Shown: positions 1,905 through 48,503, numbered from the stretch's first letter. The stretch is DNA of 53,420 nt from Chthonomonadales bacterium (GCA_046715155.1 JBKJZI010000213.1:1-53420), one strand, 5' to 3'. Notes: a model not told the origin generated them from the letters alone. Made by a program: numbers and translations.

Positions 1905-4900
1905 ATGCGGTGGGTAATTGCAGCTTTTGTTGGCAGTTTCACGGCGGTTTGTGCGGCCGCGCAGGTCGCCGGGCGAGTGCAGGCGCCGGACTTCAATCGC
2001 GAAGTCCGGCCCATCCTGGCGAATCACTGCTTCAAGTGCCACGGGCCGGACGACAAGCAACGGATGGCGGGACTGCGGCTGGACCAGCGCGAAGCGGCGG
2101 TCTCCCCCCTTAAGAGCGGCAAGCGTGCAATTGTACCGGCCAAGCCGGAATTCAGCGAACTGATTCGGCGTATCTTCTCAAGCGGTCCGCAGCAGATGCC
2201 CCCTGCCCACGCCAACAAACCTCTCTCGGAGTCACAGAAACAGACGCTCGAGCGATGGATTGCATCAGGCGCGGGATACGCACTACACTGGGCATTCGTG
2301 CCACCGAAACGCCCCAACATCCCGAATAGCGTAATACGAAAAACGAAAAACGAAAACCCAATAGACTCGTTCATTCTGGCGCGCCTGGAACGTGAAGGCT
2401 TGAGACCGTCCGCAGCGGCTGACCGGTATACGCTCGTTCGGCGGGTTTACCTCGATTTGATTGGACTGCCGCCTACGCCGGAGGAGGCGGACGAGTTTGT
2501 AAACGACTCGCGGCCGGACGCGTATGAACGGCTGGTCGATAAGCTCCTAGCTTCCCCTCACTATGGAGAGCGGTGGGCGCGCAAATGGTTGGACCTTGCG
2601 CGGTACGCAGATACCAATGGATTCGAGAAGGACCGCCCGCGCTCTATCTGGCCGTACCGCGATTGGGTCATCAATGCCCTCAACGCGGACATGCAGTTCG
2701 ACCAGTTCACCATCGAGCAAATTGCCGGAGACATGCTGCCGAATGCCACTCCACAGCACCTAATTGCGACCGGATTCCACCGCAATACGATGCTAAATGA
2801 AGAGGGCGGAATCGACCCGCTGGAGTACCGCTTTTATTCGGTCGTAGACCGCGTCTCCACCACCGGGACGTCCTGGCTGGGACTGACCGTCGGCTGCGCT
2901 CAGTGCCACACGCACAAATTCGACCCCATCACCCACCGCGAGTATTACCGGTTCATGGCGTTCCTCAATAACGCCGATGAGCCGGAGATGGAAATCGAGA
3001 AGCCCGAGATTACGGCGAAGCGCCGGGAGATCGAGGCAAAGGTCGCCGCACTGGAAGCGAGCCTGGCAGACAGGTTTCCGGCGCCTGATTCGTTCGTGTG
3101 GTCAGCTGCGAAAGTCGAGGCGGTTTCAACCGACAGCGGCGCTAGGGCCGAGACGCTGGACGACGGCTCGATCCTGCTCTCCGGGCGGAATCCGGAATCG
3201 GACACTTACACGGTCACGCTCGAAGTTGATTCAGCGCCGGTATTCGCGCTGCGTATCGAAGCGCTCACGCATGCTTCACTAGGCGGAAACGGTCCCGGCA
3301 GGACGCCGCACGGCAACTTCGTGCTCGGCGAGGTTACAGTTGCGGCTGCCCCAAAGAACGGCGGCGACCCACTTTCGTTGAAACTGACCCACCCCGAAAC
3401 GGATTTCGCGCAGGACGGATTCCCCGCCGCCAATGCGATCGACGGCAATCCAAAGACCGGCTGGGCGATTCACGGGCCGGGGCAGTGGAACGTCAATCGC
3501 AGACTGACCCTATCGTTAGAGAAGCCCGTACAGCTTGCTGGCGGTTCGCGCTGGACGGTCAAACTGGACCAGCAGCACGGCTCGCAGCATACGCTCGGGC
3601 GATTCCGGATTCTCCTAGGCAGTCGAATTGGTGAAGGCCCGTCAGTCGAAGCCAGGCGGAAGGAGCACCTCCGTCAGAAGTACGAAGCATGGCTGACGAA
3701 GGCGGAATCCGAGGCGGTCTCGTGGGTGCCGCTGCGCCCGGCCGCCGCGAAGGGCAGTCTACCGCTGCTCACGATCCTGGACGATAACTCGATCATCGCG
3801 AGCGGAGACCAGAGCAAGCGAGACACTTACGACATAAACTTCCGGGGCGGCGTGAATGGAACCACTGCTATTCGATTAGAGGTCTTGCCGGACAGTCGCC
3901 TGCCGAAGCACGGTCCCGGCCGAGTTTCCTATGAAGGGCCGATCGGCGATTTCTTTCTGAGCGAGGCAACCTTGACCTCAGGTGGCGCTCCGGTGAAGAT
4001 TGTGAAGTCCTCAGTCAGCTTTGGCGCCAGCGCAGCTGCCCTCATCGACGGCGATCCGCAGACCGGCTGGTCCATCAGCGGGGGCCAGGGAAAAGCGCAT
4101 ACGGCCGTATTCAACCTGGCCCAGCGGCTAGGGCGGGACTTCGACCTGCATCTGCTTTTCGAGCGCTATTATGCCGCCGGCCTGGGCCGATTCCGCGTGT
4201 CGGTGGCTGCGGATGCGAATGCGCCTGAAGCCGGCCCTCCGCCTGACGTGGAGGAGATTCTGCGAAATCGCGCCTCGCGCACAGAGGGGCAGAATCAGCG
4301 GTTGATGACCTACTTCCTGACGATAGCCTCCGAGCTGAAGGCCGAAAGGGACGAGATAGAAAAGATCCGCCGCCAGATCCCTCCGTATCCAACCACCCTC
4401 GTATTCGCGGAGCGACCGCCGGTCAATCCCCGCTCGACCTACATTCACCGCCGAGGCGAGTTCCTGCAGGCGAGAGAACCCGTCGATCCTGGCATACCTT
4501 CCTTCCTGAATCCATTGCCCGAGGGAGCGCCGCGGAATCGCCTTACTTTTGCGAAATGGCTGGTAGACCGGCGGAATCCACTAACGGCACGCGTGATCGT
4601 AAACCGCCAATGGGCGGCAATCTTCGGCCGCGGCATCGTCCGCACCCTTGAAGACTTCGGCTACCAGGGCGAGCCCCCTACCCACCCGGAGCTGCTCGAC
4701 TGGCTGGCAATTGAGTTCATGAATCCGGGGATCGGGAGTCAGGGGCCGGGAGTCGGCAACGGCCAGGCCCCGACTCCCGACCCCCGTCTCCCGACTCCCT
4801 GGTCGTTGAAGCGGCTGCACAAACTCATTGTGATGAGCGCGACTTACCGACAAAGCTCGCGAGTAACGCCGGAGCTGATGAAGAAGGATCCGCTGAACAG

Positions 4901-46379: not shown

Positions 46380-48503
46380 TCAGGCCGCCAATTGACTGGT
46401 GAGCTCGGCGGATTCCGTCACCGGCTGGTTGCAGACGTAGTTCTCACAGACATATGCGGCCGGGCGGCCGGAAATGAGGCCGCGCTCGGCGAGCAGCGGG
46501 ATCCGGGCGGAGGCAGAATCGCCGGGTTCAGCCGCAACGAGGACAGCGTTAGGCCGAAATTCGCTGCGCACTGTCCTTATCAACTCGCGGGTCTCGGAAT
46601 CCTCCAACGCCCCGACGATTGCGATCTCCTTTACCGGCCCGATGAAGAAATCCGCCGCGCAAAGCAGACGGCCGAACGCTTGCGGATGCCGTTCCAAGGC
46701 AGCTTTTGCTCTCCGCAGCACGTCCGCTGCCCGATTCCGCTGAGACGTGTCCCCGGTCAGGACGGCAAGTCTCAGCATCACGTCGACCGCGACGGAATTC
46801 CCGGCCGGTGTCGCGTTGTCTGACTCATCTTTGGGCCGAACCGCCAGCGTCTCCGCGTCCGTTGCCGTGTCGAAGAATCCGCCAGACGGGTCAGCGAACC
46901 AGTCGACCATTCGGCCGGCTAAATCGGTGGCCCTTTCGAGATAATGCCGCTCAAATGTCGCTTCATAAAGCCGCAGCAACCCATCGGCCAGGCACGCGTA
47001 GTCTTCCAGGAATCCGGGAATCGGCGCGACTCGGAAACCCGCAGAATCCAGCAGCGGATGATCAGACTCCACTCCGCCGGAACTGTCGGCCGTCGTCCGT
47101 CGTCGGTCGTCACTCTTTCCCGTCCGCATCACCCGCCCTTCGCGCACCATCGTCGCGAGCAAGAACTCGGCGTTGTTGACGGCGGTCTGAACGTAATCCG
47201 CCCGTTCCAGGACCGCGCCTGCGTCGGCGAACGCAGCCATCATCATCCCGTTCCAGGAAGTCACGATCTTTTCGTCGCGGCCGGGCTTAATTCGGCTTTC
47301 ACGTCGATCGAAGAGCCGGCGGCGCATTTCCGCCAGACGCACATCAAGATCCGCAGGGTCCATGCCTTCAGATCGGGCAAACGCATCTGTAGCTGCCGCG
47401 ATGTTCAGGATGTTCTTCTCCTCGAAGTTACCTCTATCCGTTACATCATAGAAGCGGCTGAAAAGCGCCGCGCCTTCGCCCAAAACTTCCTTGACCTCCT
47501 GCGGGGTCCAGACGAAGAACTTTCCCTCGACCCCTTCGCTGTCCGCATCCTGTGTTGAGTAAAATCCTCCCAAAGGCGAGGTCATCTCGCGCCGAACGTA
47601 GTCCAGCGTCTCCTCCACTATCCGCCGATACAGCGAGTCCTTTGTCATCTGATATGCCCGCAAGTAGGTGTGCGCGAGCTGGGCGTTGTCGTAGAGCATC
47701 TTTTCGAAGTGCGGAACCAGCCAGTGCGCGTCCGTTGAGTAGCGGTGGAATCCGCCTCCGAGCTGGTCGTACATGCCCCCGAACGCCATCTTCTCGAGCG
47801 TGAACTCCGCCATGCGCAGCGGCTCTTCCCTCTTCATACGGCGAGCGTAACGTAGAAGAAAGTCCAGGATCATCGGTTGTGGAAACTTGGGAGCGCCGCC
47901 GAATCCACCGAACCGCGCATCAAACCCCTGACGGATTCGCTCGTAGGCAGAATCGAGAAGATCAGGAGTCACCGGCTCCGGGGGCAGGTCCAGGACGGAC
48001 CCACGCTTCATCTCTAGGAGGAGTTGCACTCCCTGCTCCTCCACTTCCGCGCGGCGATTCCGCCAGGCCTCGACGACTGACTCAAGCACGCGAGGAAATC
48101 CGGGTCGGCCGTACATATCCGTCGGCGGATAGTACGTCCCACCATAGAACGGCTTACCTTCCGGGGTGAGGAACACCGTCATCGGCCAGCCGCCCTGACC
48201 CGTCATCATCTGAACCGCGTTCATGTAGATCTGATCGATGTCCGGCCGCTCCTCGCGGTCGACTTTGATACTGACGAAGTGGGCGTTCATGATGGCGGCG
48301 ATCTCCGGATTCTCGAAGCTTTCGCGCTCCATCACGTGGCACCAGTGGCACGCGGAATACCCGACGGAAAGCAGAATCGGCTTCGCTTCGAGCCGTGCCT
48401 TCTTCAGCGCCTCCTCGCCCCAGGGAAACCAGTCTACGGGGTTGTGCATATGTTGCTGAAGGTAGGGACTGGTCTCGTTAGAAAGCCGGTTCGTATACCT
48501 CAT
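46380..48503 (-). CDS. YyaL/SSP411 thioredoxin-domain protein (DUF255 + alpha/alpha barrel)
   Basis: [45 protein letters not shown]. Confidence 0.95.
47083..47110 (-). repeat. (ACGACGG)4-like heptamer array inside CDS
   Basis: Plus strand ctgtcgg ccgtcgt ccgtcgt cggtcgt; encodes DDRRRTTAD. Confidence 0.75.

Follow-up and report, generated by a model that had tools for sequence, protein, structure and literature searches.

Tandem arrays of 7–8 nt units and their G-rich-first hairpins in a draft planctomycete genome

Background

Tandem arrays of heptamers have been described in several bacteria. The available parts of a study of Xanthomonas (Rehm et al. 2015, PLoS One, PMC4692102) report that 89–93% of its GGGAATC arrays are intergenic, at a mean distance of 28 nt from the upstream open reading frame (ORF), that 70–75 of about 185 arrays occur as convergent pairs and that arrays are depleted between divergent genes; no function was found for them there. 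The same parts cite a survey in which many bacteria have an excess of heptamers, for which polymerase slippage may be responsible; they also cite the heptamers of Calothrix and give GGGGA(C/T)T as the unit of the heptameric G-rich simple sequence repeat (SSR) of Nostoc/Anabaena. Here we describe short tandem arrays in a stretch of 53,420 bases from a Chthonomonadales bacterium (GCA_046715155.1, JBKJZI010000213.1), called the window throughout. It is the whole of contig C213 of the draft genome G000, which has 4.57 Mb in 374 contigs and is 76% complete. The genes in the window mark the host as a planctomycete: they code for PSCyt1/PSCyt2/PSD1 and DUF1501 proteins, a sulfatase and an OEP–HlyD–MacB–ABC efflux operon. 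The arrays have mostly units of 7 or 8 nt, and many are paired with a complementary array in a hairpin. They form a real, strongly non-random class of repeats, which is present in the whole genome.

Two other systems are of interest. The short tandemly repeated repetitive (STRR) sequences of cyanobacteria are heptamer arrays dispersed through the genome, with few unit families in each genome. In Rickettsia a single conserved palindromic element of about 100–150 bp is present in multiple copies, which are found in frame in ORFs. Both had been proposed as analogues in an earlier note, prepared from the bases of the window alone, and we consider them apt. On arrays of this kind in planctomycetes nothing relevant was found in full-text searches, which excluded subscription papers and supplements.

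Abundance of arrays and hairpins

The arrays of the window were detected with Tandem Repeats Finder (TRF), with a score of at least 30, and the sequences at the loci of interest were also read directly. The earlier note had placed short-period arrays at 17 coordinates, and every one of them holds such an array. In the window there are 21 TRF rows of periods 7 and 8, against a mean of 2.4 in 30 triplet shuffles (standard deviation 1.4, maximum 6). In the whole genome the rows are 1006 for period 7 and 682 for period 8, against 89 and 106 after a triplet shuffle, an excess of about tenfold. Such an excess rules out chance. For period 3 there are just 39 rows genome-wide and 3 in the shuffle. The non-overlapping arrays with periods 6–9 number 2447 in G000 and 379 in the shuffled genome.

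As an inverted partner we have taken a complementary array at most 90 nt away. Such a partner is present for 307 of the 977 arrays of period 7 and for 319 of the 669 arrays of period 8. Two controls were used: a partner which is reversed but not complemented is found for 11 of the 2447 arrays, and in the triplet-shuffled genome none of the 379 arrays is paired. For period 6 the proportion is 25 of 241. The arrays of period 9 are mostly coding and hardly ever paired (8 of 560), therefore the family is really one of periods 7–8, with some arrays of period 6; the range of 6–9 nt given in the note is right except for its upper end.

Altogether G000 yields 370 hairpins with the build array–spacer–inverted array and 1020 single arrays, roughly half of the latter within ORFs. 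The median length of the hairpins is 68 nt and that of their spacers 15 nt; their predicted fold is about -40 kcal/mol, whichever strand is considered. This build was thought to recur throughout the window. It does so at 8 of the 17 loci, but the others hold single arrays.

An artefact of chance, composition or assembly is hardly conceivable as an explanation, even though the genome is an incomplete draft with many contigs and arrays are slightly commoner than expected at contig ends: of the 748 ends, 68 have a short-period array at most 30 nt away, the expected proportion being about 5%. Triplet shuffles give about ten times fewer arrays and no paired ones, which speaks against it. Reading frames stay open through arrays inside conserved domains, and the same architecture is found in the independent genomes G028, G007, G015 and G001. 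Public sequencing runs also give unitigs which match flanks and partial arms exactly, although these runs could be the source sample itself. They are four soil-metagenome runs of one study, each containing 7–10% of the sampled words. Their unitigs have 150–300 nt and a depth of 2–3; no unitig extends across an array, and several break off within one. Together with the enrichment at contig ends, this indicates that the arrays appear to fragment short-read assemblies.

Polarity of the arms

The two arms of the hairpins have a very different composition: the 5' arm has 40% G and 7% C, the 3' arm the reverse. We have found 316 hairpins with the G-rich arm first, 41 with the C-rich arm first and 13 ties. 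When only arms with |G-C|/length of at least 0.25 are considered, there are 266 G-first hairpins and a single C-first one; this test and the self-fold test given below leave out arms under 20 nt or weakly skewed. The five hairpins found by the detector in the window are all G-first. The rule given in the earlier note, with the G-rich arm 5' of the C-rich arm, thus extends to the whole genome. Since an inverted repeat reads alike on both strands, the polarity is an intrinsic property of the element.

Neither the hairpins in ORFs (30:5) nor those between divergent genes (20:3) have a weaker polarity (Fisher p = 0.48). Ordinary hairpins without repeats do not have it: in 18 array-negative relatives 196 are G-first, 182 C-first and 304 neutral. 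The non-repeat hairpins of G000 itself show a mild polarity, 88:63. Because the polarity is independent of context and absent in ordinary hairpins, it should be a signature of the way in which the second arm is made, rather than of selection depending on context. This agrees with the generating process suggested in the earlier note and points to an asymmetric step in it.

Two causes were considered and rejected. Avoidance of Rho was dropped as the main cause of the polarity: Rho is present, yet the polarity is undiminished in coding and divergent contexts. Neither is it a fold-back of the G-rich strand, as the predicted self-fold is negligible for both strands (mean -0.14 vs -0.07 kcal/mol).

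Location after genes

Genes were mapped with a crude codon-bias caller, which gives 3670 genes and 83% of coding sequence; the counts of coding arrays near ORF starts are therefore soft. Most hairpins are non-coding (335 of 370) and 35 are found in ORFs. The 17% of the genome which is non-coding holds 597 of the 977 arrays of period 7 and 421 of the 669 of period 8. Among intergenic hairpins 205 lie between genes on the same strand, 64 between convergent and 23 between divergent genes, the numbers of such gaps being 2330, 481 and 485.

Distances to stop codons were counted leaving out 43 hairpins at contig edges and the 35 inside ORFs. In the same-strand gaps 107 of the 205 hairpins start within -5 to +10 nt of the last base of the preceding stop codon; distances to the following start codon vary widely. 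No bias is seen in stop-codon usage. Single arrays which are G-rich on the sense strand are also close to the stop, with a median of 6.5 nt and 81 of 136 within 15 nt, and may therefore be a precursor state of the hairpins. When the sense strand is C-rich the median distance is 73 nt.

The array hairpins are not canonical intrinsic terminators. At least six T in the 10 nt past the 3' arm are found in 7 of the 205 same-strand hairpins and the terminator rule holds for 9 of all 370; the other 361 lack a T-tract, for which reason a role as intrinsic (Rho-independent) terminators was rejected. By the same rule canonical terminators are scarce in G000, 119 in 3407 gene ends. At the end of the efflux operon of the window the order is stop codon, array hairpin and then a separate GC-rich stem with TTTTATTTATT. 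An array hairpin followed by a canonical terminator is nevertheless not a general design, as it is found for 1 of 269 array hairpins.

Repeat units and element ends

G000 has 184 canonical units of period 7 and 210 of period 8. The dominant ones are AACACTC, which heads 60 arrays, AAAATCC (58 arrays), AAGAGTGG (72) and ACACACCC (68). Units had been considered specific for each locus in the earlier note; this is not so, as a limited repertoire recurs throughout the genome. The units are also related to each other: of 32 octamer units 30 have a neighbour at Hamming distance 1, and of 54 heptamers 44; random units with an equal composition would give 7.3 and 26.6. They are thus a limited, mutationally connected repertoire.

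Elements of the same unit family have loops and flanks which are unrelated in sequence and in length, and the copy number of their two arms is unequal. Pairing stops at the element and does not extend into the flanks. We found no target-site duplications in 356 elements, the longest direct match between flanks being equal to the control. Unrelated loops and flanks and the lack of duplications therefore exclude a miniature inverted-repeat transposable element (MITE), as the earlier note had already maintained. The two arms of an element have not changed independently. There are 569 in-register mismatches between arms; independent arms should give 932 and a shift by one unit gives 853, therefore the arms co-evolve. 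When a position varies, the variant is mirrored in the other arm in 371 cases and not in 377. There are also nested elements: a hexamer array occupies the loop of at least three TGTGGGTG hairpins.

Mobility in a wider sense deserves attention, given that the same units are found at tens of loci with phase-locked ends. The elements would then be non-autonomous, similar to MITEs or to REPINs (hairpins formed by two repetitive extragenic palindromic, REP, sequences), and would be copied by a transposase such as Y1, the REP-associated tyrosine transposase (RAYT). They lie outside genes and after them, as REPs do, and some are composite and nested. Furthermore all the array-positive relatives searched have Y1_Tnp genes, with 2 matches in G000, 6 in G001, 7 in G007, 2 in G015 and 3 in G028. 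We nevertheless find such an origin quite unlikely. Elements of one unit family have nothing in common in their loops and flanks, and no target-site duplications were seen. Of the 31 genomes searched 22 have Y1_Tnp, many of these being array-negative, and the Y1 genes of G000 (on contigs C166 and C275) are not flanked by arrays; for these reasons a RAYT link was rejected. No multi-copy gene family with more than three members at 80% identity or above is present in the G000 assembly, a weak result since a draft collapses repeats. No tetranucleotide tag is common to the different families; a GTAG/CGTC tag was not seen on inspection of the element ends, for which no dedicated scan was made.

Comparison with related genomes

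The relatives were sampled at 5–100 kb per genome; for G002, G003, G005, G011, G013, G015 and G027 the sample is only 5–32 kb. The nearest ones have about 70–75% coding identity with G000, and no genome of the same genus is among those compared. Rows of period 7/8 have a density of 39 per 100 kb in the window, about 45 in G007 (with 3 hairpins) and about 37 in G015 (2 hairpins). G001 has about 28 per 100 kb, plus 3 G-first hairpins on another contig. The highest value is found in G028, which belongs to a different family: 50 per 100 kb and 11 hairpins, of which 10 are G-first and 9 adjoin the stop of an ORF. A borderline case is G008, with 20 rows per 100 kb at 71% GC and no hairpins. The other sampled relatives have a background density and no hairpins; G021 was outside the sample. 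Among the negative genomes G002 and G003 are as close to G000 as the positive G007 and G015.

The junction between a small protein and the ABC ATPase of the efflux operon (small228|ABC) is particularly informative. It has strong G-first hairpins in G000, G007 and G015, each built with a different octamer, which therefore indicates turnover in place at conserved positions; the PSD1 linker described below behaves alike. The same junction has ordinary stem-loops in G003, G008, G014 and G017 and almost no gap in G001 and G009. In G003 there are also plain hairpins at the HlyD|MacB junction and a canonical terminator after ABC. As relatives have ordinary stem-loops at the same junctions, the position of the hairpin must be older than its build from tandem repeats. 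The earlier note described the arrays as colonising operon junctions; they do fill them, but close relatives already have ordinary stem-loops there.

These plain hairpins at the same junctions invite the view that no special mutational process exists and that ordinary selection for stem-loops after genes has been met by repeats in some lineages. Canonical terminators are so rare in G000 that other structures may be needed at 3' ends, and tandem arms can pair in several registers, which would make the stems robust to insertions and deletions. It is an unlikely explanation, as too much is left aside. Selection of stem-loops does not account for the 1020 single arrays, about half of them in ORFs, nor for an excess restricted to periods 7 and 8. 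The polarity is not explained either: ordinary hairpins lack it (196:182) and array hairpins keep it in coding and divergent contexts. The same can be said of the arrays in protein linkers and of the canonical terminator which follows an array hairpin in the window.

One of the units has been traced further. An (TGTGGGTG)3 array is found in just 7 of 401 genomes of the phylum, which belong to several families and have truly divergent contigs; the reversed-pattern control is the same repeat in another phase and is uninformative. In G039, G063 and G059 most of the TGTGGGTG tracts are long arrays, either single or higher-order, rather than compact hairpins after a stop. Given this build and the low complexity of a T/G word, convergence is plausible and the tracts are not evidence of transfer, so that horizontal spread was not accepted. 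The array densities of these three genomes and of G100 are biased upward, since their contigs were picked because they hold the array that was searched. A peculiar case is locus L180 (G039:C360:7350-7850) in a distant planctomycete, where two or three TGTGGGTG units alternate with a block similar to GTGAGAGGGTGA; this higher-order architecture is unlike the compact hairpins of G000.

Arrays in protein-coding regions

The coding arrays of the window are found at the edges of Pfam domains or in linkers: before PSCyt2, DUF1501 and PSD1, and between NB-ARC and TPR. All of these are heptamers, as the earlier note had stated for clear coding copies, but the rule does not hold genome-wide: among the 669 octamer arrays there are 150 which lie within called ORFs at a depth of more than 90 nt. 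When a single array of the genome falls in an ORF, its sense strand is C-rich in 306 cases and G-rich in 169. Such arrays are over-represented in the initial fifth of the called ORF, to which over-long ORF calls may contribute.

The best example is the heptamer hairpin GGGAGTC / CCCGACT at 4716–4810, which lies in frame in the PSD1 domain (aa 938-969) of ORF 1905-5525. Its arms have 41 nt and are 76% complementary; the predicted folding energy (dG) is -53.4. The site is placed between the motifs PELLDWLAxEF and WSxK. An initial regular-expression scan of the sampled relative loci for PSD1 gave nothing, and tblastn gave one distant paralog (overlapping loci L048 and L049); the comparison is built on PSD1 loci gathered directly from the relatives. 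Among 13 paralogs in G000 the site is empty in 2 and contains 17–39 aa in 11, formed by different 7/8-mer arrays, some of them nested. In the array-positive genomes G000, G007, G015 and G001 it has 16–40 aa with a periodicity of 7/8 nt, and the in-frame hairpins reach -62.8 kcal/mol. In array-negative relatives it is empty (3-4 aa) or has a plain linker of 9–16 aa. The direct orthologs of the window gene, with about 70% identity, agree with this distribution: in G000 and G007 there are hairpins of different units, in G030 and G025 a plain linker of 16 aa.

Since array-negative relatives have empty sites or shorter linkers there, the arrays expand or overwrite permissive linkers, not arbitrary loops. 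The statement that they colonise protein loops is thus too strong, as plain or empty linkers are already present in array-negative relatives. The earlier note would have given way if orthologs had equally long loops without repeats; the comparison goes part of the way there, since orthologs do have loops, but shorter ones.

Possible origin

The most likely account, in which we have moderate confidence, combines a turnover of the arrays in place driven by slippage, an asymmetric step for the second arm and a REP-like role after ORFs. The arrays would arise and turn over in place through slipped-strand replication of 7–8 nt units, at sites where additional structured sequence is tolerated or favoured. 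A G-rich array would first appear beside a stop codon, on the sense strand. Intrastrand template switching would then add the complementary arm and keep it matched, a step which should be intrinsically strand-asymmetric. Slippage and conversion together would homogenise the units and spread a limited repertoire of them. Protection of the 3' end of mRNA and effects close to the stop codon are known from work on REP sequences of E. coli. By analogy, the stem-loops found after ORFs may either shield the 3' end of the upstream message or attenuate read-through and translation at the stop codon.

Several observations weigh against this account. For the polarity of 266:1 no physical basis was found; the G-rich strand barely folds on itself. 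The same 8-mer at 50–70 loci would not be expected from independent slippage, nor would ends which are phase-locked: of the 32 ends on each side of ACACACCC elements, 20 on the left and 24 on the right are in one of the eight possible phases. In 125 elements with unequal arms the register favours anchoring at the outer end in 48 and at the inner end in 27, with 50 ties; copying outward from the loop predicts the opposite. The sense RNA is predicted to be no more stable than the antisense (85 vs 119, with 1 tie). The split between G007/G015 and the equally close G002/G003 is left unexplained.

A responsible factor was sought in 31 genomes, and none of the enzymes tested (reverse transcriptase, Y1 transposase, SbcD, MutS and Ku) tracks the trait. 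There is no candidate among the proteins of the window either, in agreement with the earlier note. The reverse transcriptase RVT_1 is found in 10 genomes and was not found in G000, in G015 (77% complete) or in G028 (97% complete). SbcD is present in 27, including G000, G001, G007 and G028; it was not found in G015, with the completeness just given. MutS1 is present in all 31. The loss of a hairpin nuclease or of mismatch repair was rejected for this reason, and the presence of SbcD and MutS in array-positive genomes is a further difficulty for slippage, since it fails to explain how the trait is split. A Ku homolog is found only in G000 (C18:7094-7627, 168 bits); it could be a recent acquisition or come from a mis-binned contig, as contamination is estimated at 2.8%.

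Some of the features which are difficult for slippage would follow naturally if, at a nick or break close to genes but outside them, a factor of patchy occurrence added G-rich units of 7–8 nt inward to the two flanking 3' ends, and these were then rejoined. A G-first polarity which is nearly absolute in every context is then expected (266:1 overall, and also in coding and divergent positions), as are phase-locked outer ends and an outer-anchored register (48 vs 27). Loops with unrelated junction sequences and an unequal copy number of the arms are predicted too, together with mirrored variants if both ends copy one template and a patchy presence among the closest relatives. Such an addition of repeats is a rather improbable explanation all the same. 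No RVT_1 was found in the positive genomes G000, G015 and G028, and Ku occurs in G000 alone. The 184 and 210 different units would need many templates, and half of the variant positions (377 of 748) are not mirrored. The preference for outer anchoring is modest, as 50 of 125 cases are ties, and hairpins occupy positions shared with ordinary hairpins in relatives. If it were true, the arrays would be scars of an unrecognised bacterial activity of repair or synthesis which adds repeats, similar to telomere healing or to a slippage polymerase, and a fast gain and loss of the factor would explain why equally close genera have arrays or lack them.

Elements in the window

The efflux operon is the richest region, as four successive junctions and its 3' end are filled by array elements. 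Between the stop of HlyD (38379) and the start of MacB (38299) there is a hairpin TGTGTGGG / CACCCACA at 38312–38374, which is 96% complementary and has a dG of -53.5; the same gap is of 0–33 nt in most relatives. A quasi-palindrome with three CACGCAG repeats at 37045–37084 lies after the MacB stop (37091) and ahead of the following start (37018), with a dG of -25 for a gap of 72 nt. The octamer hairpin TGGAAGAG / CTTCCACA at 36244–36327 fills the junction between the stop of gene 36332–37018 and the ABC start (36237); 8 nt separate it from the stop and 10 nt from the start, and its dG is -49. After the stop of the ABC ATPase (35482) we find the hairpin TGTGGGTG / CACCCACA at 35397–35476, which has a hexamer array similar to ACGATT in its loop. 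Downstream of it, at the end of the operon, a plain GC-rich stem-loop at 35341–35388 (minus strand) is followed by TTTTATTTATT and is the canonical intrinsic terminator of the operon.

Repeats of another type are also present in this operon. Long triplet tracts of CCG/CCGCCGCCA type are found on the plus strand at 36477–36619 and 38392–38451. They encode Gly-rich tails, in the protein of gene 36332–37018 and in about the last 24 codons of HlyD before its stop at 38379 (minus strand). Both tracts have similar counterparts in relatives; they are coding repeats of an ordinary kind and do not belong to the 7–8-mer family.

There are three further hairpins. A heptamer hairpin GATTTTG / ATCCAAA at 20593–20669 is in frame in ORF 18917-21967; its place is the linker which joins NB-ARC (aa 292-530) to TPR (aa 736 onward). 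The hairpin TCGGGTA / CCGATAC at 31278–31340 is placed 1 nt past the stop of ExbD (gene 31342–31806, minus strand). A long hairpin with 9-mer units of GCAGATTAC type at 27940–28041 lies between the minus-strand genes 26587–27708 and 28304–31120. Two ORFs overlap it, 27681–28112 (minus) and 27726–28016 (plus); neither matches Pfam and they are probably not genes. The gene caller chose the plus-strand ORF, so that array regions can create spurious ORF calls.

The rest are single arrays. Two of them are found in paralogous PSCyt2/PSD1 genes, both on the plus strand: ACGAAAA x3 at 2336–2356, which ends where the PSCyt2 domain begins (aa 152) in ORF 1905-5525, and CGAAAAA x3.9 at 9796–9822, at the equivalent position before PSCyt2 (aa 54) in ORF 9665-12169. 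The same type of array stands in both directly before the sequence NPID of PSCyt2; either it predates the gene duplication or the site repeatedly gains the same unit. In the second paralog the adjacent arrays CGGAATA x4 and AAATCCA x4.6 (11248–11332, plus strand) lie in the linker ahead of PSD1 (aa 559). The other coding arrays are AAATCCA x4.9 at 7131–7164 (plus; aa 53-64), just ahead of DUF1501 (aa 73) in ORF 6974-8449; ATTCCGC x4.1 at 18415–18443 (plus), in the methyltransferase ORF 17988-18740 (aa 143-152); and GTCGTCC x3.9 at 47085–47111 (minus), inside the DUF255/thioredoxin-like ORF 46380-48590. Two arrays lie at gene junctions. TATCAAT x5.1 at 43896–43931 is found where an amidohydrolase stop (43919) meets an aminotransferase start (43889), and the hexamer AATCGT x4.8 at 46350–46378 fills the space between the stop of the DUF255 protein (46380) and the start of a HAD hydrolase (46351).

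A repeat with a period of 45 nt was also detected at 22840–22992, with 3.4 copies and 72% matches, inside ORF 22191-23075, which has no Pfam match. When the window was compared with Rfam at the gathering threshold, no family was matched.

Relation to known systems

G000 and its relatives are a good system of study, with hundreds of elements, many units and a polarity almost without exceptions; as sister genera either have or lack the trait, the factor behind it could be sought by comparing them. The same process rewrites operon junctions and protein linkers, and thus bears on the origin of RNA structures and of low-complexity protein segments. Gain or loss of units with a period of 7–8 nt can cause frameshifts inside genes. 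In practice, the arrays seem to break assemblies and are open to confusion with terminators or mobile elements.

As with Rho-independent terminators, a stable stem-loop is found directly after a gene; unlike them, 361 of the 370 hairpins have no U-tract. REP sequences, bacterial interspersed mosaic elements (BIMEs) and REPINs are likewise abundant extragenic palindromes after genes and inside operons, according to the available parts of PMC3733652. The elements of G000 differ from REPs and REPINs because they share a short unit alone, without a conserved palindrome, and have stems made of tandem repeats; in contrast with REP/RAYT systems, the Y1 genes have no arrays at their flanks and Y1 does not track the trait.

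The palindromic elements of Rickettsia are similar in that palindromic DNA is tolerated in frame, as in the 35 hairpins in ORFs, but in G000 each in-frame hairpin is made of a different unit and is placed in a pre-existing linker. Cyanobacterial STRR sequences have in common with G000 their dispersed heptamer arrays.

The closest likeness is with the heptamers of Xanthomonas and Nostoc; from what the available parts of PMC4692102 describe, the phenomenon is already known for one unit in Xanthomonas. In both cases there are tandem arrays of few units, about 90% intergenic, near the end of the upstream ORF and depleted between divergent genes. Many form convergent inverted pairs, that is, with the G-rich arm first, and the length and sequence of the array vary between related genomes at conserved positions. 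There are also differences. G000 has hundreds of unit types with 7 and 8 nt and no dominant one: the commonest heads 72 arrays, and G-runs are absent from abundant units such as AACACTC, AATTATC and ACTGATC. Since most units lack G-tracts, G-quadruplexes are not a common property of the elements. Arrays of G000 are also found in frame at hot spots in protein linkers, they belong to another phylum and their presence differs between the closest genera. The elements of G000 are thus best filed as the planctomycete counterpart of the heptamer SSR/STRR repeats, with multiple units of 7–8 nt.

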